Shown here one piece after another: positions 2,853 to 15,708 of a stretch of 64,000 nt of DNA (positions are counted from its first letter, which is position 1; each line of letters begins with the position of its first letter). The stretch lies in the IMG/VR virus record IMGVR_UViG_3300035208_002115. One strand, 5' to 3'. The stretch comes from a virus (Duplodnaviria > Caudoviricetes). The notes beneath the pieces were generated by a model. It did not search any database. It worked only from the letters and a program-made list of their open reading frames with translations, and was not told the DNA's origin. The translations under genes were made by a program, and so were the position numbers.

Positions 2853-3281
2853 ATGGCTATACTCAATTACACCACTTCAATAAAATGTGAAAAGACATTA
2901 ATGGAAATACAACAATGTCTGGTTAAACACGGTGCAACTAAAATTGTAACCGATTATAATAATCAAATACCAATAGCTGTCACGTTTTGTCTTACAATAA
3001 ATGATAAACTGATAGCTTATTCACTACCAGCTAATTATAAAGGTGTCCTGAATTCTATGAAAAAAGACCATAAAGTCCCTCGGAAATTAGTAACAGATGA
3101 ACAAGCTCTCCGAGTTAGCTGGAGAATTATAAAGGATTGGGTAGAAGCTCAATGTGCAATAGTAGATGCTCAACTGGCTGACGTGGCCGAAGTATTCCTA
3201 CCATACGCTGTTGCAAAAAGTGGTAAAACTCTTTATAATGAGATTAAAGATGGTGGAATGAAAATGTTGATGGAAGGGTAG
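2853..3281 (+). CDS. hypothetical phage protein
   Basis: 142-aa ORF (..RVSWRIIKDWVEAQ..EVFLPY..), directly upstream of iscB. Confidence 0.7.
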   Translation: MAILNYTTSIKCEKTLMEIQQCLVKHGATKIVTDYNNQIPIAVTFCLTINDKLIAYSLPANYKGVLNSMKKDHKVPRKLVTDEQALRVSWRIIKDWVEAQCAIVDAQLADVAEVFLPYAVAKSGKTLYNEIKDGGMKMLMEG

Positions 3282-3339
3282 ATTTTTTTATTTAATATTT
3301 TTTATTTACTTTCGTATATTATTTTTTATTTAATTTTAT

Positions 3340-4929
3340 ATGAAGAACAACCCAATTTATGTTATAGATTTCAACGGGCAACCATTAATGCCAACATTCA
3401 GATATGGTAAGGTTCGTCATATGCTTAAAAATAACCAAGCAAAAATAATAAAAAGAGACCCATTCTTTACTATTCAATTATTAACAAACACATCGTCATA
3501 TATACAGTATATTATTGGTGGTATAGATATTGGTGAAACCGTTGGAATATCGGTAATAAACCCAAAAAATAATACTGAAATATTGTCTGCCGAATTAAAA
3601 ACACGTAGTAAAGATATTCCAGATAAACTTAAAGAAAAAACTCAATATAGAAGAACCCGAAGAAATCATTTAAGATATAGAACAAAAAGATTTGAGAATA
3701 GGAAATCTTCATTAGGTAAATGTAAAGTGTGTGGTGGTAATACTAAAAGTGGAAAAGAATTTTGCTCAACATGCTTAGATACAGTTAATGGTAATCATAA
3801 TGCTTATAAAGATATTTCTAAAACTACATCACAAAAAAGACTTGCACCAAGCGTAAATCATTTAATTGATGCCAATCATAAAATTATAAATAAAATAAAT
3901 GAAATATTACCTATTAAAGAAGAAAATTGGATATACGAAAAAGTTAAATTCGATATACAGAAAATAGAAAATATTGATATATCAGGTGTTGGATATCAGC
4001 AAGGTGATATGTTTGGTTTTTCAAGTTTGAGAGAATATATATTAGAAAGAGATGAACATACATGTCAAAACCCCAACTGTAAACATAAGAATATTAAAAA
4101 CCTAAAAAAAGGTGAAAATGTTTATTTGAAAAATAATATTACATTAGTAACACATCATATAATATTCAGACATCTTGGTGGCACAGATAAACCAAGTAAT
4201 TATATTACGTTGTGTACTGATTGTCATATACCAACAAATCATCTAAAGGGTTATTTTTTATATGATTGGTGTATAAAAAAGAAAAAAGTTAAAAGTGATT
4301 ATAAAGCTGCTACTAAAATGAATGTGGTCGCTTCTTCTTTTGATGAAAAAAAGAATTTTATACCCACGTTTGGTTCTGAAACAAAAAGAAAAAGACAATT
4401 GATTGGTTTAGATAAAACCCATTCGAATGATGCCCTTTCTATTTGTATAGATAAAAATAATTTTGATTTGATTGATGATTCTGGAAAAAAGAAAGTTGTT
4501 TTAAAACGAGATTTCAATTTAAAAAAAATAGAACATCCTGATTATCTTATTCAAACAAATGGTCGTTCTAATGGTAGACGAGCATTAAGTACATTTCAGG
4601 ATTCTAAATATATTGATATCAGAGATGGAAAAGAAAAATCAGGAAAAGAGTTATCAAAAGAAATGGATAAACGAACACTTATAAATAATAATAGAATTTA
4701 TAGGGGAAAGAAAACAAGTAAAGGTTCTTTTGTTAAAAGAACTGGTATAAGTGAATTTCCAAATAATTCAATTATCGAATTTACATATAATGGTAAACAT
4801 TTTATTAAAGTGTGTGGTGGTGTAACTGGATATAATGTATATGTTAAAGATTTCGAGAAAAAAACAGTTGCAATAAAAAAATGTAATGTAAAAATAATCT
4901 GTAAAAGAAAAGGTGTTATTAAAAAATAA
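3340..4929 (+). CDS. iscB: IscB RNA-guided endonuclease (OMEGA; CRISPR-associated), 529 aa
   Basis: N-terminal GQPLMP; RuvC-I GIDIG (D63); Arg-rich bridge helix RRTRRNHLRYR; RuvC-II IYEKVKFD; HNH THHI..RHLGGTD..SNYITLCTDCH; RuvC-III KTHSNDA; extra CxxC-x10-CxxC insert after the bridge helix. Confidence 0.95.
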   Translation: MKNNPIYVIDFNGQPLMPTFRYGKVRHMLKNNQAKIIKRDPFFTIQLLTNTSSYIQYIIGGIDIGETVGISVINPKNNTEILSAELKTRSKDIPDKLKEKTQYRRTRRNHLRYRTKRFENRKSSLGKCKVCGGNTKSGKEFCSTCLDTVNGNHNAYKDISKTTSQKRLAPSVNHLIDANHKIINKINEILPIKEENWIYEKVKFDIQKIENIDISGVGYQQGDMFGFSSLREYILERDEHTCQNPNCKHKNIKNLKKGENVYLKNNITLVTHHIIFRHLGGTDKPSNYITLCTDCHIPTNHLKGYFLYDWCIKKKKVKSDYKAATKMNVVASSFDEKKNFIPTFGSETKRKRQLIGLDKTHSNDALSICIDKNNFDLIDDSGKKKVVLKRDFNLKKIEHPDYLIQTNGRSNGRRALSTFQDSKYIDIRDGKEKSGKELSKEMDKRTLINNNRIYRGKKTSKGSFVKRTGISEFPNNSIIEFTYNGKHFIKVCGGVTGYNVYVKDFEKKTVAIKKCNVKIICKRKGVIKK

Positions 4930-4967
4930 TTTTTTTATATCATTATTTTTTTTATTTTTACATTTAA

Positions 4968-4976
4968 GTTCTTTGA
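4968..4976 (+). promoter_or_regulatory. boxA-like antitermination element upstream of the CRISPR array
   Basis: GTTCTTTGA; the same 9-mer recurs at 6232 and 6585 inside the tRNA cluster. Confidence 0.5.
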
Positions 4977-5032
4977 AATTTTGTTAAATATCGATTAAGC
5001 AGTCACACCTTAAAAATGCGACTTTGTAACTT

Positions 5033-5504
5033 GTTGTGTATTGCTTTCAATTAATTAAGTAATTCAGTTATATAGTTGTGTATTGCTTTCAATTGATTGG
5101 GTAACTCAGTGGAGCAATATTTATATTAAATCAAAGCAGGGTTGTGTATTGCTTTCAATTGATTGGGTAACTCAGTATAAAATAATAGAATTAGAAAAGC
5201 GGTTAAGTTGTGTATTGCTTTCAATTGATTGGGTAACTCAGTGGTTGCTATTGATGGCATCGTGTTAGCTTTGTTGTGTATTGCTTTCAATTGATTGGGT
5301 AACTCAGTTTCTTCTTAGCAAGTTTAGTCGCATTCAGTGTTGTGTATTGCTTTCAATTGATTGGGTAACTCAGTTTATATCAGGTTTTACAAATGTGGCA
5401 ACGTTGTGTATTGCTTTCAATTGATTGGGTAACTCAGTAAGATATCTATGGTGATGAACCTTGGGATAGTTGTGTATTGCTTTCAATTGATTGGGTAACT
5501 CAGT
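5033..5504 (+). CRISPR. CRISPR array, 8 x 36-nt repeats GTTGTGTATTGCTTTCAATTGATTGGGTAACTCAGT
   Basis: Repeats start at 5033 (degenerate, 4 mismatches), 5075, 5141, 5207, 5273, 5339, 5403, 5469; spacers of 6, 30, 30, 30, 30, 28 and 30 nt. Confidence 0.98.
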
Positions 5505-5790
5505 ATAGCAATAAACAAATCGTTGTTAATCAATCATTTGAAACTAAAATCCGATGTAAAAAATCGAATTTTTTGAACACATTTAGACTAAGAGAAAGGA
5601 TTTTTCCAATCCTAATATCTACGTTATGTTAGAATGTGGATTAAACCACAAATAGGTACGTTAGTGTGATTCCCAAGCACTATCTTCTACGGTTGTTTTT
5701 TAAACATCTCTGTGCAATAGGAGAAGTGAAAACAACAATAAACCTAACAATAACTTTGTCAAAGGGAACTAACAGGATTTATTCCTGATT
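5505..5790 (+). ncRNA. omegaRNA/HEARO-like scaffold with 5' anti-repeat segments (tracr-like), contiguous with the last CRISPR repeat
   Basis: Ordered omegaRNA-type motifs AGACTAAG, CTACGTT, ATAGGTAC, CCCAAG, TCTACG, TAAACA, AGTG, AAACC, ATAACTTTGTCAAAGGG; 5507-5518 and 5525-5543 are complementary to the repeat; boundaries approximate. Confidence 0.8.
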
Positions 5791-5818
5791 TATTGATATT
5801 TAACAATTTCAAAGAAAT

Positions 5819-5857
5819 AATAAAAGCAGATGATTTATTTATCTGCTTTTATTTTTT
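5819..5857 (+). terminator. intrinsic terminator closing the CRISPR-omegaRNA transcript
   Basis: 13-bp stem AATAAAAGCAGAT/ATCTGCTTTTATT followed by a T-run. Confidence 0.75.
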
Positions 5858-5908: not shown

Positions 5909-5984
5909 CAAAGTCAAAATGGAAAAAAGTGACCTTTTTGACTTAATATATAAGAAAACAAAAACAAATTTAAAATAACGCAAA

Positions 5985-6071
5985 ATGCTACTTTGTAATT
6001 TATATAATATGTATCTTAATAACTTAGAGAATGATAAAACTCTGGGCAGGGATATACTATGTATAAGTTAA
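5985..6071 (+). CDS. putative attenuator leader peptide MLLCNLYNMYLNNLENDKTLGRDILCIS (28 aa)
   Basis: ATG 5985 to TAA 6071 between the promoter and a terminator; overlaps GGCAGGG (6045-6051), which can pair with the terminator 5' arm. Confidence 0.7.
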   Translation: MLLCNLYNMYLNNLENDKTLGRDILCIS

Positions 6072-6139: not shown

Positions 6140-6220
6140 GGCTTCATGGTGGAATGGCAGACACGTTAGTCTTAGGAACTAATACCGAAAGGCGTGAGGG
6201 TTCAAGTCCCTCTGAAGTCA
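6140..6220 (+). tRNA. tRNA-Leu(UAG)
   Basis: GGCTTCA/TGAAGTC acceptor stem, loop CTTAGGA, long variable arm, GGTTCAAGTCC T-arm. Confidence 0.93.
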
Positions 6221-6365
6221 CTAAAAAAAGAGTTCTTTGAAGAAATAAGGTTAGTAATCTGGACGCTTAACCAGCAGAAGGGTGAAGTTTCCTTGGAAGA
6301 AATTGATACAAACAGGCTTTGGTGGTTCTTAGCAATGTGTTGATAAAGTGACCGAAAACATAAAT

Positions 6366-6438
6366 GGAGCGTGTGGCGTAATTGGTAACGTGTATCCCTG
6401 TCACGGATAAGTTCGGGGTTCGAGTCCCCCACGCTCCG
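6366..6438 (+). tRNA. tRNA-Asp(GUC)
   Basis: GGAGCGT/ACGCTCC stem, loop CTGTCAC, GTTCGAGTC. Confidence 0.9.
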
Positions 6439-6446
6439 CTTAATTT

Positions 6447-6521
6447 GGTGCATTGGGCTTCGAGAAGGAGAACATGGTTGTCACCCATGTAAAATTAACG
6501 GATTGTCACCGTTATGCACCG
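6447..6521 (+). tRNA. atypical tRNA-Asp(GUC)-like RNA
   Basis: Perfect GGTGCAT/ATGCACC acceptor stem and CATGG-TTGTCAC-CCATG anticodon arm, but non-canonical D arm and T loop. Confidence 0.55.
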
Positions 6522-6650
6522 CTTAAAATTCACAAAATGTGATTTACAAATTGTGAATTCTCGATTTGCTAATTGCGAATCGATGTTCTTTGACGTATTG
6601 GGAAAAGGTATTTAAAATACGCCAGTGTGGATAGGTTCACACTGGTAAAT

Positions 6651-6724
6651 GGGGGTGTAGCGTAGTTGGTTAGCGCAACTGACTGTTAATCAGTAGGTCG
6701 TAGGTTCAAGTCCTACCACCCCCG
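6651..6724 (+). tRNA. tRNA-Asn(GUU)
   Basis: GGGGGTG/CACCCCC stem, loop CTGTTAA. Confidence 0.93.
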
Positions 6725-6732
6725 CATAAAAT

Positions 6733-6817
6733 TTCGTTGTGGCAGAGTGGTCAATTGCAACAGGCTCATATCCTGTGGTTAGAAATAACTTCGTGGGTTC
6801 GAATCCCACTGACGAGA
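6733..6817 (+). tRNA. tRNA with CAU anticodon (Met/Ile2) and long variable arm
   Basis: ACAGG-CTCATAT-CCTGT anticodon arm, variable arm GGTTAGAAATAACTTC, GGTTCGAATCC T-arm. Confidence 0.8.
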
Positions 6818-6824
6818 CAATAAT

Positions 6825-6896
6825 GGACATGTAGCTCAGAGGCAGAGCGACACCCTGTTAAGGTGAGGGTCGGGATTTCGATATTCTCCTTGTCCG
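6825..6896 (+). tRNA. tRNA-Asn(GUU)
   Basis: GGACATG/CTTGTCC stem, loop CTGTTAA, T loop TTCGATA. Confidence 0.8.
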
Positions 6897-6910
6897 CTTT
6901 TTAAAATATA

Positions 6911-6998
6911 TGCGAGGTGGTGTAACTGTTAACACGCTTGGCTCATAACCAAGAGACATCAAATGCTTGTGTGGGTTAGAATCCCACCTTCGCTCCCA
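6911..6998 (+). tRNA. tRNA with CAU anticodon (Met/Ile2), extended variable region, encoded CCA
   Basis: CTTGG-CTCATAA-CCAAG; GTGGG-TTAGAAT-CCCAC. Confidence 0.75.
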
Positions 6999-7095
6999 TT
7001 AACAATTTTTGTCGTAGTGGACGACAACCATTCAGGTAAGCTGGGTATCAAAATTTAACCATCAAGAAAGTGAGAGGCTTTCATTAAAAATATAT

Positions 7096-7169
7096 CGCAG
7101 GGTAGAGCAGTTGGTAGCTCGTCAGACTCATAATCTGAAGGTCGTGGCGTTCAAATCCCACCCCTGCAA
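7096..7169 (+). tRNA. initiator-type tRNA-fMet(CAU)
   Basis: CGCAGGG/CCCTGCA with C1:A72 mismatch; loop CTCATAA. Confidence 0.85.
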
Positions 7170-7175
7170 CTAAAT

Positions 7176-7247
7176 GCTCGGTTCGTATAGTGGTTAGTAC
7201 ACAACACCTTCAATGTTGTTACAGGGGTTCAATTCCCCTACCGAGTA
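7176..7247 (+). tRNA. tRNA-Glu(UUC), C at position 33
   Basis: GCTCGGT/ACCGAGT stem; CAACA-CCTTCAA-TGTTG. Confidence 0.8.
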
Positions 7248-7255
7248 CAAAATTT

Positions 7256-7338
7256 GGATAGGTAGCGAAGTGGTCAAACGCAATTGACTGTAAATCAATC
7301 ACTTACGAGTTTCGCAGGTTCGAATCCTGCCCTGTCCA
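7256..7338 (+). tRNA. tRNA-Tyr(GUA)
   Basis: GGATAGG/CCTGTCC stem, loop CTGTAAA, long variable arm. Confidence 0.93.
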
Positions 7339-7349
7339 CTTACTTAAAT

Positions 7350-7424
7350 GTTCGGTTCGTCTAACGGTCAAGGACGGCAGGTTTTCATCCTGTTAATAGG
7401 GGGGTTCGATTCCCCTACCGAATA
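7350..7424 (+). tRNA. tRNA-Glu(UUC)
   Basis: GTTCGGT/ACCGAAT stem, loop TTTTCAT. Confidence 0.88.
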
Positions 7425-7427
7425 CTA

Positions 7428-7763
7428 TTATCTCTCAGTATTAATCCAATAAGATTTGATATTTTCCTTGGCATCTTCGTCATATTCGATATATACTTCG
7501 CCTAAAGTTCTACCGTATTTTGCTAACCAAATACGTTTTTCATCGGCTAAACGATACCTGTTTTTCTTATCATATTCGACCGTTTCTATTCTATCGAGTT
7601 TACTATATAATTGTTTCTCGAATTCTTCTTTGGATATATGTTTAAATTGATTGTCTTTATGTTGTTCAACATAGGTTAAATATATAGCACGGTCAAAACG
7701 TTGTTGGTGTGTTTCACCGAAATCTTCATTTAAGAATTGGGAAAAGGATTGAACATTTTTCAT
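7428..7763 (-). CDS. hypothetical protein with N-terminal FxxFLNE motif, antisense within the tRNA cluster
   Basis: 111-aa ORF MKNVQSFSQFLNE; AATATATA motif upstream. Confidence 0.7.
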   Translation of the reverse strand: MKNVQSFSQFLNEDFGETHQQRFDRAIYLTYVEQHKDNQFKHISKEEFEKQLYSKLDRIETVEYDKKNRYRLADEKRIWLAKYGRTLGEVYIEYDEDAKENIKSYWINTER

Positions 7764-7842
7764 GATAAATAAAAATATTTTTTATTATATATTAAACATC
7801 TTACCATAATTTGACTATTTATAGAAAAATATTTTAATTAAT

Positions 7843-8025
7843 ATGATGGATGTTTCAGAATATAAAAGAAGAAGAAGACGTGCTTTAAAAGCAGTAAAGG
7901 CTCATACAAAATATAACAAACAAGAAGTGAAAGAATATTATGCTACTTGTAAATCCTATAAACAAACAATGGAACATTTTGGGATGACAAGTAAAGGCAC
8001 ACTTCATTGGAATTTAAATAATTAG
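7843..8025 (+). CDS. small hypothetical protein
   Basis: 60-aa basic ORF. Confidence 0.45.
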   Translation: MMDVSEYKRRRRRALKAVKAHTKYNKQEVKEYYATCKSYKQTMEHFGMTSKGTLHWNLNN

Positions 8026-8108
8026 CCCTCATGTCGAAAGTTTGGTAGCCGAAGCAGTTTCAAACACTGTTGCTGAAAGGCGTGTAGGTTCGAGTCCTAC
8101 TGGGGGTA
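8025..8108 (+). tRNA. tRNA-Leu(CAA)
   Basis: GCCCTCA/TGGGGGT stem, loop TTCAAAC, long variable arm. Confidence 0.88.
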
Positions 8109-8140
8109 CATACTATATTGATAAAAAATAATAATTTTAT

Positions 8141-8995
8141 GTGATTAAAAAATGTGAGAATTATGATAAAGAAACATTAGATAAAATAATACAAAAATGT
8201 TTTTCAATAGCTGGAGTTTGTAGAGAATTAAATATAAAAGCAATTGGTGGTAATTATAAAACTATAAAATATTATATCAATGCTTATAATCTTGATATAT
8301 CACATTTTACTGGTAAAGGCTGGAATATAGGTGAAAGATATAATAACGTTAAAAATAAAATCCCTTTAAGTGAAATATTAGTTGAGAATTCCACATATAC
8401 AAATACACATTTATTAAAGAAAAGACTTGTTAAAGAAGGTTATTTTGAATATAAATGTAATGAATGTGGATTAACTGAATGGTGTAATAAACCAATTTCC
8501 TTGCATTTAGACCATATTAATGGCGATAATTTAGACCATAGAATAGAGAACCTAAGATTATTATGTCCGAATTGTCATAGTCAAACAGAAACTTACTGTT
8601 CTAAAAATAAAAAAAGTTCAAAAAATACATTAAGAATACATAATTTTATTGAAAATAAAGATTTCTTAATCAATAGAGAATCAAAGAAACAAAAACATTA
8701 TTGTGAATGTGGTAAAGAAATAGAAAAAAGGGCTAAAAAATGCAGAGAATGTTATAAAAAAGATAGAACTGAAAGTGTTAAACAAAAAAATCATTGTGCA
8801 TGTGGTAAAGTGATTAAAAATGAATCAGTGATGTGTTTGGATTGTTTACATAAACATAACAGAAAAGTGGAAAGACCATCATATGAACAATTAATTTTAG
8901 AAATTAATGAATCTTCTTATACCTCAGTGGGTAAAAAATATAATGTTGCAGCTAAAACCATTAAAAAATGGAAATTAGCTTATGAAAGAATTTAA
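8141..8995 (+). CDS. free-standing HNH (homing-type) endonuclease with C-terminal zinc-ribbon repeats
   Basis: CNEC...LHLDHINGDNLDHRIENLRLLCPNCHSQT; repeated CxCGK...CxxC units. Confidence 0.9.
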   Translation: MIKKCENYDKETLDKIIQKCFSIAGVCRELNIKAIGGNYKTIKYYINAYNLDISHFTGKGWNIGERYNNVKNKIPLSEILVENSTYTNTHLLKKRLVKEGYFEYKCNECGLTEWCNKPISLHLDHINGDNLDHRIENLRLLCPNCHSQTETYCSKNKKSSKNTLRIHNFIENKDFLINRESKKQKHYCECGKEIEKRAKKCRECYKKDRTESVKQKNHCACGKVIKNESVMCLDCLHKHNRKVERPSYEQLILEINESSYTSVGKKYNVAAKTIKKWKLAYERI

Positions 8996-8999
8996 AAAC

Positions 9000-9295
9000 G
9001 CTCCTATGGTGGAATGGCAGACACGATGGACTTATACAATTTGAGTGCTTATAGAGAAATCTGTAAAGTAGAACTTGTCAAATTCGATGAAACCTATAAA
9101 ATGGTAATATCGAGCCAACCCATCTTTTTTTAGATGGAAGTGTGTAGAGAGTAGACGGCAAGCACCTAAGTCGAAAGATATGGTGAAGGTGTATTCCAGA
9201 CCACAAAATCAATTTGATGCGATGAAAGTCGTAGTGGTAAGAAAATCCATTGGGCAGTAATGTTCGTATCGGTTCAAGTCCGATTAGGAGTACCA
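9000..9295 (+). tRNA. tRNA-Leu(UAA) interrupted by a group I intron; encoded CCA
   Basis: Exon 1 9000-9033 ends ATGGACTT; exon 2 9242-9295 starts AAAATCCAT; spliced loop CTTAAAA; acceptor GCTCCTA/TAGGAGT. Confidence 0.92.
9034..9241 (+). ncRNA. group I self-splicing intron (tRNA-Leu UAA type, 208 nt, no internal ORF)
   Basis: Inserted after U34 and ends in G; core CAAATTCGATGAAACC..GGTAATATCGAGCCAA..GTAGAGAGTAGACGG..AAGGTGTATTCC parallels cyanobacterial/plastid trnL introns. Confidence 0.9.
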
Positions 9296-9361
9296 AAAAA
9301 CAGGATAACAAATGGGTTATCCTGTTTTAAAACAAAACATTTTATTTTCACTATATTAATA

Positions 9362-9706
9362 ATGCAAAACATTGATGTTTTAATTTTCATAAAAAGTATA
9401 AGAGAATCCTTTAGTAGTTCAGTAACTGTTTATACATATGGTAATTGCTACCAATTTTATGAAATATTAAAAACAATATATCCAGAAGCCGAAGCTTATT
9501 ATGATGGCAGTCATGTCTGGACAAAAATAGGTGATAAATATTATGATATAACAGGTGAATTAAAGCTTGAAGGTAAGTTTGAAAACATAAATTTAAGACC
9601 AATTGTAGATAATGAACAAATTGCATCATTATCTAAGAATAAATGGTCAGATGAAAGAAGAAAAGATTATTGTCAAGAATACAAAAACAAATTATTAAAT
9701 AAATGA
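9362..9706 (+). CDS. hypothetical protein
   Basis: ATG at 9362 preferred because the track start (9260) overlaps the tRNA; GNCYQF..HVWTKI motif. Confidence 0.7.
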   Translation: MQNIDVLIFIKSIRESFSSSVTVYTYGNCYQFYEILKTIYPEAEAYYDGSHVWTKIGDKYYDITGELKLEGKFENINLRPIVDNEQIASLSKNKWSDERRKDYCQEYKNKLLNK

Positions 9707-9918
9707 AAAGAGGTACGATAGAGCAACAAGAAAGATTTTCTAAATTAGATATACAGAAAATGTATCCAAATGAATGTGAAAATTATGATATTGTAGCACT
9801 TATGGAAATGTGGCATTTATATAATAGTGAACCGAAACGTGGTGATTGGATTGATGGTAAAATAATTGAAGAAGTGACGAATGATGGGACAGCATACTTC
9901 ATCTTATTAAAGAAATAG
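9703..9918 (+). CDS. hypothetical protein
   Basis: 71-aa ORF overlapping the previous stop. Confidence 0.6.
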   Translation: MKRGTIEQQERFSKLDIQKMYPNECENYDIVALMEMWHLYNSEPKRGDWIDGKIIEEVTNDGTAYFILLKK

Positions 9919-9953
9919 ACAATATTTATAAAATATACTTGCAAGTCAAAGTG

Positions 9954-10069
9954 AAATACCCCAACCGAAAGACAAGTAGGTTACTGGTGCAGAGGTGGTT
10001 CGAGTCCCCGAACAGACCAAGGTCGTGCTTGGCTTGTGCAGGTTCGCAAAAAACAGTTTGGGGGTATTT
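9954..10069 (+). ncRNA. unassigned structured RNA with T-loop-like element
   Basis: Closing stem AAATACCCCAA/TTGGGGGTATTT; internal GGTTCGAGTCC; GC-rich relative to flanks. Confidence 0.5.
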
Positions 10070-10074
10070 TTAAT

Positions 10075-10149
10075 AGTGCGTTAGTTCAGTGGTAGAATAC
10101 AAGTTTGTCACACTTGGGGTCAGGGGTTCAAATCCCCTACGCACTGCCA
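10075..10149 (+). tRNA. tRNA-Asp(GUC), encoded CCA
   Basis: AGTGCGT/ACGCACT stem; CAAGT-TTGTCAC-ACTTG. Confidence 0.92.
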
Positions 10150-10334
10150 ATGAAAGCTGATAATAAAAACAACCCTTGAATAGGTTGTAAAGGTTGCTAA
10201 ATAATGGATGAATTGCAATCTAAAACAAGAATCGACTATTTCCATTATTATTTTCAGCTTTTATTTAAAACAAAATATTTATTTTTGTATATAAATAATA
10301 AATTTTTTTAGTTTAATTAATTAAGTAATAATTT

Positions 10335-10643
10335 ATGGCACAAATACCAAATGAAGTAATTGATGTTGTTAGAAAAAAACACAACGCTCAGATAACAACA
10401 ATTGAAAATGAATTTGATAATTATATATGGAGATTATCAGCAATAATTACAGGGAGTGCTAACAGAGCTGATAGTTCAAAAATAGCCACCGAAGTATCTA
10501 AATATTTGCAATTAGTTAAAAAAGAGTTTATTCTTAATTGGTGCAATGTTGAATTCTTAGAAGCTGTTTCTCAGCATCAAAGTGATTTTTTAGATAAAAA
10601 TGGGTTTGACTCTGAAGAAGTTGTTAAAGAATTTAAATATTAA
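10335..10643 (+). CDS. hypothetical protein
   Basis: 102-aa ORF. Confidence 0.65.
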   Translation: MAQIPNEVIDVVRKKHNAQITTIENEFDNYIWRLSAIITGSANRADSSKIATEVSKYLQLVKKEFILNWCNVEFLEAVSQHQSDFLDKNGFDSEEVVKEFKY

Positions 10644-10780
10644 AATTTATAACGGACTTTTGTTATTTCATTTTATAAATAAAAACGTTCTTTCAAATAA
10701 TCATTTCTAAAAAGTAGATTGGCCATACGAGTTAGTCGTGTCCCTTGGAGTTTCTTAGGTAAACAAAAAACACGAAACTT

Positions 10781-11170
10781 ATGGAAACAAACTATTTATT
10801 TTTAAATGATTACGCAGGGTTCACTTATGAAGCGGTTGTTGAGGACATAGTTGCCAACTATCAGGTGTCACAATCTTTTGTTGATAACTATCGTATCTTG
10901 GTGGCACATCTTTCTGGTGATGGTGGGTACGAAGAATCTTCTTATTTCTTATTGGTTGAGAAATCTACTGGTAATTTATTTGAAGTTTCTGGTGGTCACT
11001 GTTCCTGTTATGGTTTCGAAGGCCAGTTTGAGCCAGAGATTACTTCGATAGAGTATCTTATTTCAGAACAGTCCTACTTCGGTAGAGACCCTGAAGTAAA
11101 GAAACAAATCGAGATTTGTTTGGTGAAATGGATTCGTTACTTGAAATTGAAAGAAATATTCGAGTTCTAA
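10781..11170 (+). CDS. hypothetical phage protein with C-terminal RxxKL motif
   Basis: GGHCSCYG motif; ends IRYLKLKEIFEF. Confidence 0.7.
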   Translation: METNYLFLNDYAGFTYEAVVEDIVANYQVSQSFVDNYRILVAHLSGDGGYEESSYFLLVEKSTGNLFEVSGGHCSCYGFEGQFEPEITSIEYLISEQSYFGRDPEVKKQIEICLVKWIRYLKLKEIFEF

Positions 11171-11222
11171 ATGAAAGTTTAGGACTCGATTTTTTATATA
11201 TAAAAAGAAAACAACATATTAA

Positions 11223-11780
11223 ATGATTTTTAGTTATATATCATTTATCAAAGAAAACATAAAACATCAATATAAATTTTATAAAAATATTGATAATATT
11301 GTTGATGGTGAACCATTAGTTTATTATAATGTTCCATTTGAATTAGGCGAAAAAGGTATAGGTTTTAGTGATACAGAAGATTGGAAACATTATTTAGGTA
11401 ACCAATATGTTTATGATTATATTAAAGACATTGATATAAAAGAAGCTTTAAAAGAAGACTTATCTAATATAAATATATCTGTTGATTGGACTTCTATAAA
11501 AGAAGATGATATAATAAACAATATATCAGCATATCAAAATAAAAATAAACATTCTTTAAGAATTGCCAAATTAGTTAAAGAGATGTTAGATAACAAACCA
11601 ATAAGACCAGTTTCAATGTTTTTTGATGCGATGTCGTATAATTACGATATAAAGAATAACATTGAAGATGGAAATCATAGAATAAGAGCATTACAATATT
11701 TAAAATATGATGGGTTTCCAGCTTACATATATGGTGGACATTCAAAATATCTTATTGAATATTTAAATCAAAATATTTAG
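11223..11780 (+). CDS. ParB/sulfiredoxin-like domain protein
   Basis: IEDGNHRIRAL motif; N-terminal YxxFIKE motif. Confidence 0.65.
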   Translation: MIFSYISFIKENIKHQYKFYKNIDNIVDGEPLVYYNVPFELGEKGIGFSDTEDWKHYLGNQYVYDYIKDIDIKEALKEDLSNINISVDWTSIKEDDIINNISAYQNKNKHSLRIAKLVKEMLDNKPIRPVSMFFDAMSYNYDIKNNIEDGNHRIRALQYLKYDGFPAYIYGGHSKYLIEYLNQNI

Positions 11781-11891
11781 ATGGGTTTTTTATCAATCTA
11801 AGCATCTATATTTATTATAGAATTTTTTTTATAATATTTTTCATATTATTTTTGGTTCATTATTTTTACTACAAACCAAAAATTTACTACT

Positions 11892-12155
11892 ATGTTTGAG
11901 AACGTGATACTTGCAGAAATAGAAGGTGTTAAATATATACTTTCTGAAGATATAAAATATGGTGATAAAGTTGTTGGGTATTTTGAAGTTGGTAAATATT
12001 GGTTAACTGATTGTATAGCGAAGAACAACTTTGATGAAGGTGACATCAAAAACCAGTTTTTGATTTTCAAAGATGGTATTAGTTGTGGTGTAGCCAACAA
12101 TCCATTCAAACACCAAAGATGGTTCAAGGTAATAGGAACTCTTAAAGAAGTATGA
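11892..12155 (+). CDS. hypothetical protein
   Basis: 87-aa ORF. Confidence 0.55.
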   Translation: MFENVILAEIEGVKYILSEDIKYGDKVVGYFEVGKYWLTDCIAKNNFDEGDIKNQFLIFKDGISCGVANNPFKHQRWFKVIGTLKEV

Positions 12156-12210
12156 TGGTACTAATAAAATATTAGACTTCTTTTTATATATAGAAATAAA
12201 AATATTTTTT

Positions 12211-12966
12211 ATGGGGTATATTAAAAAATACGATGAAGTGGTTAATGAGCATAAATCCTCATTCAAGGTTTGTATAAAATGGGCGCATGGTGATGATGAT
12301 TTCTTCACCGATAAAATATATTATTTTTCTACTGAAGAAATGATGAGGAAGTATTTGGATTTTATTTTTGATGTTCGAAAATTTATACCAAACAGAGGTT
12401 ATAAAAATCTTGGTTATTTTGAAGATGGATACCACGAAGGAAAAGGAGAATGGGTTCGAAAAATAGCTGAAAAACACAATCCAGAATTTATTGATTATAT
12501 GGAGATTGACGGGTCTGGCCCAAGTGACCATTATGCAAATATTGAAGACATTTATGTTAAAATAGGTAATAAAAGAAAATTTATCGTCTGGTCAGAAGCA
12601 TTAAATACTAACATTATAAGTTTACCAGAAAAAGGTTCTATAATAGATACCAATTCTGGACAAATATGTGGACATGGTAAATACACATTTGGTGGTAAAA
12701 CCAGTGACTATTTATACCATTGGGATTTGAAAAAAATATATGATGAGAAAAAAGAAGGTAAATATACCCCAATGAAACTTGAAATATTAGATATTAAGAT
12801 AGCTAATTATAGCAATTATATTAAAGATTATGACGCTTTTAAATACGAGGTGTTGTGTAAGATACCAGAAGGATTAGTAACAACCGAAATTGATGGATAC
12901 GACCCAGATTTTGAGAAAAAGTATAATAAAGAAAAGTGGGATGGTATGTCACTATATTTAGTTTAG
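12211..12966 (+). CDS. hypothetical protein (N-terminal YIKKYDEVVNE motif)
   Basis: 251-aa ORF; TATATATA at 12185. Confidence 0.7.
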   Translation: MGYIKKYDEVVNEHKSSFKVCIKWAHGDDDFFTDKIYYFSTEEMMRKYLDFIFDVRKFIPNRGYKNLGYFEDGYHEGKGEWVRKIAEKHNPEFIDYMEIDGSGPSDHYANIEDIYVKIGNKRKFIVWSEALNTNIISLPEKGSIIDTNSGQICGHGKYTFGGKTSDYLYHWDLKKIYDEKKEGKYTPMKLEILDIKIANYSNYIKDYDAFKYEVLCKIPEGLVTTEIDGYDPDFEKKYNKEKWDGMSLYLV

Positions 12967-13082
12967 CGCATATTTTTGATTATATCATATTCAGCGCATA
13001 TTTTTATCATAGGATTTTTTTTACAGAACATTTCTTAATATTTTTGGTATGTTAATTTTATTACAAACCAAAAAGTTCTGAT

Positions 13083-14297
13083 ATGAAAAGGATTAGAAAA
13101 TTTAAAGTTACTTCGACCTTAAAAAGTGGTAAGACAGTAAGTCAGCCGTCTTTTGGTAGAAAAGATTTAAATGTTGTAATTTCAGCTTTAATATCAGATG
13201 TGGATGTAGAATCAGTGAACATTTCCAAGGAAGGTTTTGCCGATGCATCAGATATTAAGATTTGGAATTTATAATTTAAAAATATACTGATATGAAAACA
13301 CCGTTGAAATTCTACATTGGTGAAAGGAGTAATCCACAGTTAAAAAAGTCTTATTTTGTTACCTATGGCAGGTTAACAAAAAAGGATGCTCAGAAAAAGG
13401 AAGATTGTCTTTACGGCAGTATGTCTTTAACCCCGTATGAAACCGAGGAAGAATATAACACTGCAATATCAAAACTGGAAGAAGAAGGGTTTAATATTAA
13501 AAATAGTGTTTGAGTCATGAAAAAAGTAAGACTAATGAAACGGGTTATGAAATGTTTGATGATTTTTGTAGTATTGTCAATAGTTTCTATGATGTACATT
13601 GCTTTTAACTTCGAAGCGTATAGAGGTATTACGTTTTTACTATCGAGTTTATCGATTTTAACTACTGCTGTTATATTTTACACTTTTTATCTGGTTGTAA
13701 AATATGTCTTGAATCTTGACCAAGATACAGAAAAATCGGAAGATGTTGGTAATATATTAATGTCTTTTGTTTACAACGGGAAGAAACATATTAAAATTGT
13801 TTAACTATGAATATATTTAATTTTTTCAAAAGAAATTCATCATTTGAAATAGGTGAATATGTTCGCTTAGATAAAGGAAAAAGTAGTGACCAATTGGTTA
13901 AATTGACTGAAATATATGATGGTGGTAAGGTTTGTTATATTGAAGGACACTATTGGTCTGGTACAGTGGATATGAAACGAATAAGTAAAGAGGTATGAAA
14001 AAATTAAAAGATATCAAGTACGAAATACTTAATGATATACTTATTGTAGTATTCATTTTAAGCCAAGTAATACCCATTGTGTGGATGGGTGTATATTTGT
14101 ATAAGAATAGTGATAGGGTAGAGGAATATTACACAGTTACAGTCTCCAATATTGATGCTGACCATGTTATAATGAATAAGAGATTAGATGGTTATGAATT
14201 AATAGGTCGGGATTATTGTCAAAATGGTGAGCCAAATGAATTATATTCTGGTGATAATATGGTTACTATTTCGATGATTAAATTGAAAAACCCATAA
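13083..14297 (+). other. run of five small hypothetical CDS (13083-13274, 13292-13513, 13517-13804, 13807-13998, 13995-14297)
   Basis: Co-oriented, tightly packed ORFs; two have hydrophobic segments. Confidence 0.6.
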
Positions 14298-14304
14298 CAA
14301 AAAC

Positions 14305-14385
14305 GGTGGAATGCCTGAGTGGTTGAAGGGGGCGGTCTGCAAAACCGCTACGAAAGTCTCGTGGGTTCGAATCCCACTTCCACCT
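14305..14385 (+). tRNA. tRNA-Cys(GCA) with extended variable loop
   Basis: GGTGGAA/TTCCACC stem, U73, GCGGT-CTGCAAA-ACCGC. Confidence 0.9.
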
Positions 14386-14404
14386 CAAAACAAAAATTAT
14401 CAAT

Positions 14405-14659
14405 ATGACACCAGAAGATGTTCTAAAAAATTGCATTAAATTCGAGGTTAAAGATTTTGAACGAATCTTTATAGAATCTGGATATAAAAGTTCTGATAGT
14501 GTAATAAGTTTAGAGGATGCTATGTCAGCTATAAAAGAATATATGGAATATGCTGATAATGTTGCTCTACATTGTATCCAGTTGGCGACAAATTTAAACT
14601 ATGGTAGTAGATGCTCACTGGAATATTTGCAGAAAGCAAAAGATAAAATGAAAAAGTAA
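14405..14659 (+). CDS. hypothetical protein
   Basis: 84-aa ORF. Confidence 0.55.
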   Translation: MTPEDVLKNCIKFEVKDFERIFIESGYKSSDSVISLEDAMSAIKEYMEYADNVALHCIQLATNLNYGSRCSLEYLQKAKDKMKK

Positions 14660-14757
14660 AAAGAAAGGAGAATACAAATTATGATTGATTTTAGTTAGAT
14701 ACTCACCTACGTGGTGAGTTTTTTATTACGTATTATTAAAAAATTAAATACTAAAAA

Positions 14758-15408
14758 ATGAAACAATATCCACACATAGAGTATTGGAATCAATGTAAGT
14801 TTGGTTCTACCATCTGGGGATTTGATAAATTAGATGGCTCTAATATCCGAGCCGAGTGGAGAAAAAAAAGAGGGTTTTATAAATTCGGGACTAAACAACA
14901 AATGATTGATACCCGACACCCACAATTCGGTGAAGCTGTCACACTATTTCTAAACAAGTATAATGAAGGGTTATCTAAAATATTCACTGATGATAAGTAT
15001 TACAGAAACGTTCAAAACTTTGTAGTATTTTCAGAATATTTTGGTGAAAATTCATTTGCTGGATATCATATACCAGAAGATAAAAAAGACATTTTACTTT
15101 TCGATATCAGCCTTTATAAAAAAGGTTGGGTTAAACCAAAAGACTTTATAAACGATTTTGAGCATCTTGGGATACCAAGACTAATATATCATGGTAATTA
15201 TAATAAAAAGCTTATACGTGATGTAAAAGAAGGTATTTTTGATGTAAAAGAAGGTATAGTCGTTAAAGGTTTAAGACAAACAAAAGGTGACGAACTGGTT
15301 TGGTTAACTAAAATAAAGACCAATGAATGGTTAAAAAGATTGAAGAACAAATTCGGTGAGAAGTATCTTTTGAAAGAAGTAAATTACGATAAAGAATTGT
15401 TAGATTAA
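14758..15408 (+). CDS. RNA ligase-like nucleotidyltransferase (Rnl2-type adenylation domain)
   Basis: Motif I KLDGSN, FSEYFG, LLFDI, EGIVVK, KIK. Confidence 0.75.
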   Translation: MKQYPHIEYWNQCKFGSTIWGFDKLDGSNIRAEWRKKRGFYKFGTKQQMIDTRHPQFGEAVTLFLNKYNEGLSKIFTDDKYYRNVQNFVVFSEYFGENSFAGYHIPEDKKDILLFDISLYKKGWVKPKDFINDFEHLGIPRLIYHGNYNKKLIRDVKEGIFDVKEGIVVKGLRQTKGDELVWLTKIKTNEWLKRLKNKFGEKYLLKEVNYDKELLD

Positions 15409-15438
15409 TATGGGTGGGCTTTATGCCCACTCAAATAT

Positions 15439-15524
15439 GGATAGGTAGCAAAGTGGTTAAATGCGCTTGACTGTAAATCAAGTCCCTTCGGGGTTCGTAG
15501 GTTCGAATCCTACCCTGTCCACCA
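15439..15524 (+). tRNA. tRNA-Tyr(GUA), encoded CCA
   Basis: GGATAGG/CCTGTCC stem; CTTGA-CTGTAAA-TCAAG. Confidence 0.93.
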
Positions 15525-15528
15525 ATAT

Positions 15529-15611
15529 GAGTAGGTATGCAAATGGCGAAGCAAGCGGTCTGTAAAACCGTGACGTAAGAGACACTGGGGGTTCAAATCC
15601 CTCTCTACTCA
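15529..15611 (+). tRNA. tRNA-Tyr(GUA), divergent copy
   Basis: GAGTAGG/TCTACTC stem; GCGGT-CTGTAAA-ACCGT. Confidence 0.85.
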
Positions 15612-15708
15612 CTTTTAAATATCCTTTTACCCATACATGTCAATTATATCCCATAAAAATATTATTTCTTAATATATTTTTTCATATTTTTGTTTAATAA
15701 AACATGAT

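Follow-up and report, generated by a model that had tools for sequence, protein, structure and literature searches.

An IscB-guided CRISPR array in a giant phage bears a type II-C-like signature that suggests spacer supply by its host

How could a phage renew the spacers of a CRISPR array if it carries none of the genes by which spacers are inserted? The question is raised by a 64,000-nucleotide (nt) stretch of DNA, hereafter the window, which corresponds to bases 125,370-189,369 of the 675,678-bp virus record IMGVR_UViG_3300035208_002115 (G000; Caudoviricetes; 27% G+C; 98% complete by CheckV). At positions 5033-5504 of the window, an array of eight repeats lies between iscB (3340-4929), which encodes an RNA-guided nuclease, and an omegaRNA (5505 to about 5800) fused in cis to the last repeat; an array scan of the same genome found two more arrays, referred to below as arrays B and C. 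The array at 5033-5504 stores the guides of a CRISPR-associated IscB that is carried by a phage. Its type II-C-like build, together with the absence of cas1, cas2 and cas4 from the phage, makes a host II-C Cas1-Cas2 integrase, acting in trans at the scaffold end of the array, the most likely source of its spacers. This best-supported model is plausible, if unproven, and we put its probability at about 0.6. The features of the locus are as follows.

3340..4929, plus strand: iscB, encoding a 529-amino-acid RNA-guided RuvC-HNH nuclease (Pfam, NCBIfam and PDB matches)
4966..4979, plus strand: conserved motif some 55 nt upstream of R1, a candidate -7 promoter element of the Bacteroidota type for the transcript of array and omegaRNA
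5033..5068, plus strand: R1, a decayed repeat that forms the array's old end, with four transitions from the consensus, all in its 3' half
5069..5074, plus strand: 6-nt remnant TATATA in the place of a spacer
5075..5504, plus strand: seven identical 36-nt repeats and six spacers
5111-5140, 5177-5206, 5243-5272, 5309-5338, 5375-5402 and 5439-5468, plus strand: spacers 1 to 6
5505..5800 (end approximate), plus strand: omegaRNA (tracr-like) scaffold fused to the last repeat (Rfam HEARO, consensus fold)
5822..5857, plus strand: hairpin and T-run, likely the array-omegaRNA terminator (15-bp hairpin, minimum-free-energy fold)

The eight 36-nt repeats start at positions 5033, 5075, 5141, 5207, 5273, 5339, 5403 and 5469, and the spacers measure, in order, 30, 30, 30, 30, 28 and 30 nt, which agrees with the definition of a CRISPR array as at least three near-identical repeats of 23 to 55 nt separated by unique spacers of uniform length. 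A preliminary description, made from the letters of the window, had placed a degenerate repeat and a collapsed 6-nt spacer at the iscB-proximal end and a perfect repeat next to the scaffold, and it was confirmed in every detail: the last repeat (5469-5504) is identical to the other perfect copies and abuts the scaffold without a gap. The perfect repeat has seven matches in the 675,678-bp genome, all of them in this array (reversed-pattern control, 0), and the exact 36-nt sequence has no match in IMG/VR. Four of the spacers have a GC content of 32 to 43%, compared with 27% genome-wide.

Some irregularities of the array are recorded here as separate observations. The first 9 nt of spacer 1 (5111-5119) match the first 9 nt of the scaffold (5505-5513) at seven positions, and the whole spacer matches at 15 of 30; this may mean that spacer 1 is left over from an early duplication of the junction between repeat and scaffold, or it may be chance. 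A 39-nt stretch (5259-5297) that runs from the final 14 nt of spacer 3 into the next repeat, of which it takes in the first 25 nt, matches Flavobacterium phage hemulen6-1, gp001 (L317:401-438) at 34 of 39 positions (E = 0.07), inside a gene of 28 related Flavobacterium phages; it is odd that this match spans a spacer-repeat border. In Logan contig L011 (SRR18595299; positions 3600-3760), the flanks are identical to the window, and the array is reduced to R1, the remnant and a single perfect copy joined to the scaffold. Breaks at arrays of this kind are seen in other Logan contigs; L011 may represent a true variant, spacer-less or with a deletion, or an artefact of assembly, and it was not used as evidence.

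What does the array guide? The 529-residue open reading frame (ORF) beside it is an IscB, with an RRXRR/bridge-helix N-terminus, a split RuvC domain with an inserted HNH domain, and the corresponding family hidden Markov model scores: it matched Pfam RRXRR (5e-42, 144 bits) and HNH as well as the NCBIfam equivalog guided_IscB (240 bits; cut-off, 175), and in the PDB it matched TbaIscB (8e-36) and OgeuIscB (8e-31). The RuvC and HNH residues D63, E200, H361, D364, H272 and H273 are invariant in 15 members of the IscB clade. The genome contains one iscB and one HEARO match. No adjacent TnpA, as would mark an IS200/IS605 element, was found: the four ORFs upstream of iscB are without any Pfam family, and no TnpA was evident downstream, where the immediate neighbors are RNA genes and tRNAs (later ORFs were unscanned, and transposon ends were not explicitly searched).

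On the other side of the array, Rfam HEARO matched positions 5575-5773 with 67 bits (E = 7e-13), which is below the gathering score of 83; the same RNA was found in relatives L012-L014 (71 bits) and in a sister phage (G006), and the fold of the scaffold has a z-score of -4.3. A consensus fold was computed from the last repeat plus scaffold of this phage, of L012 (IscB 62% identical) and of L094 (50%), and it contains 85 pairs, 21 of which have compensatory changes on both sides. Repeat nt 2-7 pair with a conserved ACACA(A/T) at 5577-5582, directly 5' of the HEARO core, which is the 3' strand of helix P1; nt 8-12 are conserved and unpaired; nt 13-25 pair with a covarying anti-repeat (5531-5543); and the rest of the repeat forms a loop in the cis form. 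The locus is an OMEGA (obligate mobile element-guided activity) system, since it has a cognate omegaRNA with the guide directly 5' of the first helix, and it is the repeat start that forms P1. By this pairing scheme, the last spacer, the last repeat and the scaffold would constitute a natural single guide.

The putative ends of the transcript are marked as well. The motif at 4966-4979, GTTCTTTGA(A/C)AT, recurs at the same place in L012, L293/L294 and L295/L296, consistent with its candidate role as promoter element of the array-omegaRNA transcript; a sigma-70 promoter scan was uninformative for a Bacteroidota-type host. The hairpin at 5822-5857 was not called by a simple terminator scan because it has few G-C pairs. 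That the host is of the Bacteroidota type is suggested by the signals upstream of the phage ORFs: a Shine-Dalgarno-like motif precedes 2.6% of 627 long ORFs, compared with 5.1% in a control window, the region from -18 to -10 is rich in A, and TAnnTTTG is enriched 2.8-fold, as in Bacteroidota. A further motif, AAATGC(G/T)ACTTTGTAA, occurs at window positions 5013-5030, just 5' of the first repeat, and again at 5975-5995, before the downstream tRNA cluster, and may be a phage or Bacteroidota-type promoter element. That cluster comprises sixteen tRNA genes (6140-15612), many of them in tandem and directly downstream of the omegaRNA terminator, and several are duplicated (Asp, Asn, Met, Glu and Tyr).

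With effector and guide RNA in place, the origin of the spacers can be approached through the repeat. One genome for each of 185,579 species was scanned for the 18-nt start of the repeat, with any base allowed at positions 7-8, and this yielded at least 120 loci, nearly all in Bacteroidota and mostly arrays with a periodicity of 76 to 77 nt. Among 401 evenly sampled Bacteroidota genomes, the motif was present in 18 and its reversed control in none. The preliminary description had likened the repeat to Bacteroidota II-C repeats and had given the beginning of these as GTTGTGA(A/T); both statements were borne out, since the phage repeat start agrees with the AA form of the II-C start at 17 of 18 positions and, among the matches listed, positions 7-8 read AT in 61 and AA in 52. 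The two loci checked (L179 and L258) have the order cas9-cas1-cas2-array and are thus type II-C. In II-C loci including these two, the repeat reads GTTGTG on the strand opposite the cas genes, which puts cas2 and the leader 3' of the array in the sense of the CRISPR RNA (crRNA).

Statistics on spacer and repeat lengths and on decayed copies were taken from arrays with at least six copies among the matches listed, and the II-C leader counts given below also refer to the matches listed. Spacers were 30 nt long in 949 of 1165 cases and 29 nt in 180. Of 40 arrays, 14 had a decayed copy at the crRNA-sense 5' end, and of 38 arrays, one had it at the 3' end, which upholds the polarity claimed in the preliminary description, as does the position of leader and cas2; II-C arrays are transcribed toward their variable end (PMC8092290). 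The phage array, with R1 first and the scaffold last, has the II-C polarity and likewise has 30-nt spacers. In the II-C leaders, the first run of at least five A's was found at +51 to +57 in 24 of 40 arrays; in the phage scaffold, an A6 run (5558-5563) is located at +54 from the repeat-scaffold junction, with corresponding runs at +54 in the sister phage and at +55 in L012. The background frequency of a first such run within +45 to +65 was 8% among random 120-mers of the phage genome. Ten of 40 II-C leaders begin with ATA, as do the flanks of all arrays in this phage, and the junction CAGT followed by ATA is common to the phage and the II-C arrays L173 and L214; besides ATA and the A-run, no longer motif was found to be common to the scaffold start and the II-C leaders. 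Over its whole length, the repeat scored z = 3.1 to 3.5 against 36-nt II-C repeats, its 3' half and the usual II-C length of 46 to 47 nt being different.

Could this similarity be a coincidence of AT-rich sequence? Eight other matches to the 18-nt start in IMG/VR were rejected as chance, each being a single match inside a gene without an omegaRNA core, and they show that such a motif can arise in this way. A chance origin would have to account for a 17-of-18 match to the most conserved repeat start of a phylum and for spacer length, polarity and leader features that match too, in three arrays, and the reversed-pattern control found nothing in 401 genomes; we consider it extremely improbable. 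The same 18 nt make up the portion of the repeat nearest the guide, the portion that in type II systems pairs with the trans-activating crRNA (tracrRNA), and the phage crRNAs might instead pair with a host II-C tracrRNA and load host Cas9 or act as decoys, in keeping with the proposal that arrays of huge phages use or silence host Cas proteins (PMC7162821). Yet this phage has its own intact effector and its own anti-repeat, the 3' half of its repeat is unlike II-C, and such cross-talk would leave the leader-like features, the polarity and the array beside a Cas12f-family gene (described below) unexplained, so that we judge it very unlikely.

Adaptation by a host presupposes that the phage does not provide for it. 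The preliminary description had seen no adaptation genes in the window, and this holds for the entire 676-kb genome, in which a six-frame Pfam search gave no match to Cas1, Cas2 or Cas4. Phage-encoded cas1 or cas2 had been named beforehand as one of three findings that would speak against supply by the host, beside a lack of similarity to II-C repeats and variation at the iscB-proximal end; none of the three was seen, the varying end being judged only indirectly. Nor does the phage have a II-C system, for cas9, cas1 and cas2 do not lie beside the array; a search of the genome for the Cas9 RuvC_III domain gave no match, which is a weak result, as the control set of that search was empty.

A comparison with the sister phage G006 revealed that spacers nevertheless change. 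G006 is the sole true relative in IMG/VR, a complete genome of 639,979 bp with terminal repeats, and it is syntenic with and 76 to 82% identical (about 80%) to the phage in the IscB region. Its iscB breaks off after codon 103, where an ATATAG microhomology links it to a repeat (L306, G006:C1:393197-397217, minus strand), and it keeps two repeats (with two changes relative to this phage), one spacer and an intact omegaRNA scaffold. Because the ATATAG of the deletion junction equals part of the 6-nt remnant plus the first base of the next repeat, the remnant would seem to predate the split of the two phages. At nt 31, R1 and the repeats of G006 have T, and all seven perfect copies of this phage share a derived C, which fits duplication of the repeat after the split. 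No spacer is common to the two phages, either in the IscB array or in array B, whose homologue in G006 (L314) contains three other spacers, its repeat beginning with GTTGTGT. Cas1, Cas2 and Cas4 were not found in the 640 kb of G006, and array C and its neighboring Cas12f-like gene are likewise missing there. G006 also carries a second, distant IscB (L050; 32% identity) that is absent from this phage.

Two marks by which trans-adaptation may be recognized are therefore present: spacers turn over between close relatives, this phage and G006, although adaptation genes are lacking in cis, and a leader-distal GTTGT end and a positioned poly(A) are common to the phage and II-C arrays. A turnover of this kind is also seen in IMG/VR records of gut phages (L039-L044, at about 2900-3300), which have 36-nt repeats like those of type II-A (GTTTTAGAG...CAAAAC): their IscB genes are 98 to 99.5% identical, their spacers are mostly different, and none of the five records has Cas1, which indicates that such arrays turn over without adaptation genes in cis. 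The scaffold-proximal spacers of two of these gut-phage loci differ from each other by 5 of 30 nt, as if one target had been captured twice independently.

The array could be a frozen relic that was filled in an ancestor, perhaps one with its own adaptation genes, and is no longer updated, the differences between phages then reflecting loss and old histories. It is small (six spacers), its first repeat is decayed and one spacer has collapsed, the sister phage has lost most of iscB, and no protospacer was found in the collections searched. Moreover, the array of the 62%-identical relative is the same in contigs from the three samples that span it (L012-L014; L015 ends inside the array). We nonetheless regard this explanation as quite unlikely, since the base shared by the seven identical repeats, and absent from R1 and from the sister, points to duplication after the split, since two homologous arrays share no spacer with the sister despite flanks that are 76 to 82% identical, and since the catalytic residues of IscB are intact.

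Is the II-C resemblance itself a recent acquisition? A single-protein locus search of IMG/VR for IscB gave nothing; alignment-based searches did give matches. The close IscB clade has 42 to 63% protein identity. In all clade contigs that are long enough (L012-L014, L094 and the contig ends L293-L296), the order is iscB, array, omegaRNA, in contrast to most other CRISPR-linked IscBs sampled, in which array and RNA lie upstream of iscB. The repeat start of L012 agrees with that of the phage at 17 of 18 positions, and the agreement is lower in L094, L293 and L295, falling with protein distance; the 3' half varies freely within the clade, together with the anti-repeat. As the start is conserved in clade members from other, unrelated samples, it is an old trait of the clade and not a recent capture by the phage. 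The preliminary description is therefore supported in part: the II-C start, the polarity and the lack of adaptation genes stand, its proposal that the array was captured from a host array does not hold for any recent event, and updating by the host in trans, which it also proposed, keeps the graded standing given above.

The polarity, too, is shared within the clade. Counting mismatches to the scaffold-proximal copy, listed from the iscB side, gave 4 and then seven zeros for this phage, 12, 5, 0 and 0 for L012, and (10), 2, 4, 6, 3, 1, 0, 0, 1, 0, 0 and 0 for L094, so that decay points away from the scaffold in all three complete arrays. Not every member of the clade keeps an array, as the 58%-identical IscB P0003 (L292:1696-3279) has ordinary genes directly downstream and neither array nor omegaRNA core within 1.4 kb. 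Outside the clade, L097:1-260 and also L099, L106 and L107 have, upstream of iscB, repeats that end like those of type I/III (ATTGAAAC) or are about 30 nt long with spacers of about 35 nt, and IscB omegaRNAs appear to have become linked to CRISPR arrays of several types.

These comparisons bear on the possibility that the II-C look is inherited and structural, consisting of the 5' strand of P1 and a protein-contacted loop that go back to an ancient capture or to shared type II ancestry, with renewal occurring by another route, such as another host CRISPR type or the exchange of spacer-repeat cassettes between co-infecting phages. In its favor, nt 2-7 are paired to a conserved part of the scaffold that adjoins the HEARO core, covariation links nt 13-25 to the anti-repeat, the start is conserved across samples in the manner just described, and other IscB clades have II-A-like or type I/III-ending repeats, so that IscB can pair with many kinds of array. 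Inheritance leaves unexplained the exact 30-nt spacers, and also arrays B and C, which have no omegaRNA and yet share repeat family, length, polarity, ATA and A-run; an exchange of cassettes with host arrays would bring in repeats whose 3' halves are of the host type, and none were seen. We consider this account, including the alternative routes of renewal, unlikely.

The two additional arrays have the following features.

G000 513,180-513,478 (L310:2681-2979): array C, with one decayed and four perfect 36-nt repeats and spacers of 30, 30, 30 and 29 nt
L310:3197-4537, minus strand: TnpB/Cas12f-family gene (446 amino acids), 217 nt from array C
G000 486,785-487,017 (L311:2286-2518): array B, with four 36-nt repeats (three perfect, one decayed) and an older remnant; no adjoining effector

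The 446-residue protein scored 117 bits with NCBIfam guided_TnpB (cut-off, 100) and matched the Pfam Cas12f1-like TNB family. Array B overlaps the 3' end of a small minus-strand ORF that belongs to a multi-copy family. The three phage arrays were compared after orienting their repeats to start with GTTG or GATG. In this orientation, the decayed copy comes first in all three, the far flank begins ATA(C/G), and A-runs (A7, A6 and A4) are located at +53 to +55 of the flanks; the flank of array C, for example, begins ATACC and has its A7 at +53. The three repeats resemble one another (z = 4.1 to 5.7 against shuffles) and 36-nt II-C repeats (z = 2.3 to 4.2). Because arrays B and C are without an omegaRNA, pairing between an IscB repeat and its scaffold cannot explain the common build, and a shared integrase can. 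Given the orientation of the neighboring gene, array C is presumably read away from this flank and the IscB array toward it.

Several observations weigh against trans-adaptation by a host II-C integrase. Neither an acquisition event nor a host with its II-C system has been observed, and the model is what we infer from the build of the arrays and from the genes that are missing. The phage form of the repeat, with TA at positions 7-8, occurs in no scanned II-C array among the matches listed; II-C repeats were 46 to 47 nt long in 54 of 63 arrays and 36 nt in 3 of 63, so that most Bacteroidota II-C repeats are 10 to 11 nt longer than the 36 nt of the phage, and of the 3' 11 nt of the phage repeat, only the final 4 are like those of II-C repeats. 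Part of the conservation of the repeat must be structural, as nt 2-7 and 13-25 are fixed by omegaRNA pairing, and part of the II-C resemblance needs no present-day interaction with a host, as the motif is inherited among IscB relatives. The A6 run lies within a hairpin loop of the scaffold and could exist for reasons of RNA structure or function. The system appears to be dispensable, given that G006 has lost most of its iscB. As for targets, no protospacer was found in INPHARED, PLSDB, the 401 Bacteroidota genomes or the phage's own or sister genome, nor by exact 22-mers of spacers 3-6 in IMG/VR. In the opposite direction, 1216 spacers from the 120 II-C loci listed gave only chance-level matches to the phage.

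Under trans-adaptation by a host II-C integrase, the locus would work as follows. One transcript would run from a promoter just after iscB through the array and the cis-fused omegaRNA to the terminator, with the last spacer, last repeat and scaffold serving as a single guide. Earlier spacer-repeat units, which can reach an anti-repeat only in trans, would use repeat nt 13-25 to pair with that of another scaffold molecule, in the fashion of crRNA and tracrRNA, and would presumably be trimmed by host RNase III, by analogy with type II biology. The array would present the host integrase with a II-C specification, namely the 18-nt start, 30-nt spacers, a 36-nt repeat (the short II-C or VI-B class), decay at the 5' end, an ATA flank and an A-run at about +54. 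New spacers would be inserted at the 5504/5505 junction, with the scaffold in the part of the leader, so that each new spacer would become the cis guide and older units would act in trans. The same host integrase would also feed arrays B and C, including the oppositely read array beside the Cas12f-family gene. That a single host integrase programs three arrays for different effectors, sorted by array orientation, is a tentative extension of the model, possible rather than probable. A comparably doubtful step, resting on the orientation of the arrays, is that the II-C acquisition motif would come to lie 3' of an IscB target, as a target-adjacent motif (TAM), and 5' of a target of the TnpB/Cas12f-side array, as a protospacer-adjacent motif (PAM), the omegaRNA doubling as integration leader.

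How does this locus compare with known systems? CRISPR-associated IscBs such as DelIscB have a short array that runs into an omegaRNA with an anti-repeat, lack cas1 and cas2 at the locus, and have several origins (Altae-Tran et al. 2021, as cited in PMC12660989 and PMC10734277). The phage system resembles that description in that IscB is guided from a short array running into an anti-repeat omegaRNA, with no cas1 or cas2 at the locus. It differs in that array and omegaRNA are downstream of iscB instead of upstream and overlapping the gene start (PMC12660989), and in its location in a 676-kb phage with repeats that start like those of the Bacteroidota II-C family. From IscB-omegaRNA pairs of IS200/IS605 elements (Rfam HEARO, RF02033), with which it shares the protein family, the RNA core and a guide directly 5' of P1, it is set apart by an RNA downstream of the gene, a P1 extended into a repeat:anti-repeat duplex, and an array in place of a single guide.

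With Bacteroidota II-C systems (L179 and L258), the locus has in common the 17-of-18 repeat start, 30-nt spacers, spacer-repeat crRNAs that pair with a trans-acting RNA, reading toward the growing end, a decayed copy at the far end and a flanking A-run near +54. In contrast to these, the phage has no cas9, cas1 or cas2, its effector is a 529-residue IscB, an omegaRNA stands in for the leader, and its 36-nt repeat has an unrelated 3' half and no TAnnTTTG promoter box inside. The nearest precedent for adaptation in trans is Flavobacterium columnare, in which a cas1-less VI-B array with 36-nt repeats is filled by the II-C Cas1, as proven by deletion of cas1, and in which the VI-B and II-C arrays are alike only in a leader-distal GTTGT and poly(A)/poly(T) in the leaders (PMC8092290). 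The phage arrays also combine 36-nt repeats without adaptation genes with GTTGT and a positioned poly(A) shared with II-C arrays, and the II-C and VI-B arrays of F. columnare are read oppositely relative to the leader (PMC8092290), as are the IscB and Cas12f-side arrays of the phage. Both F. columnare arrays are chromosomal, whereas those described here are phage-borne, have IscB and TnpB/Cas12f-like effectors, and are known from sequence alone. Huge phages, finally, have small arrays (median, six repeats) without Cas1, Cas2 or Cas4, some with host-like repeats (PMC7162821); the present array is similarly small and without adaptation genes, and IscB-guided arrays and a II-C signature on multiple arrays are undescribed there.

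CRISPR-associated IscBs (PMC12660989; PMC10734277), huge-phage arrays without Cas1, Cas2 and Cas4 (PMC7162821) and II-C trans-adaptation (PMC8092290) are thus already known. What is new is their combination: a megaphage IscB array with a II-C adaptation signature, an omegaRNA in the position of the leader, and the same signature on a TnpB/Cas12f-side array and an orphan array. CRISPR-associated IscBs are regarded as snapshots between a transposon nuclease and Cas9, and the locus offers a testable answer to the question of where their spacers come from. With the omegaRNA in the leader position, each newly acquired spacer would at once have the role of cis guide, and the signature on three arrays suggests that in giant phages several minimal RNA-guided nucleases can draw on an adaptive memory that the host writes. 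If the model is true, trans-adaptation, known from chromosomal VI-B arrays, extends to viruses and to effectors of the OMEGA type, and a II-C Cas1-Cas2 together with this array would be a simple experimental system for the origin of type II CRISPR. The locus may also lead to compact IscB and Cas12f enzymes with a TAM or PAM that corresponds to the PAM of a Cas9. Should the more tentative reading of array orientation prove true as well, the locus would be a living model of how an IscB-omegaRNA pair became coupled to Cas1-Cas2 on the way to type II.

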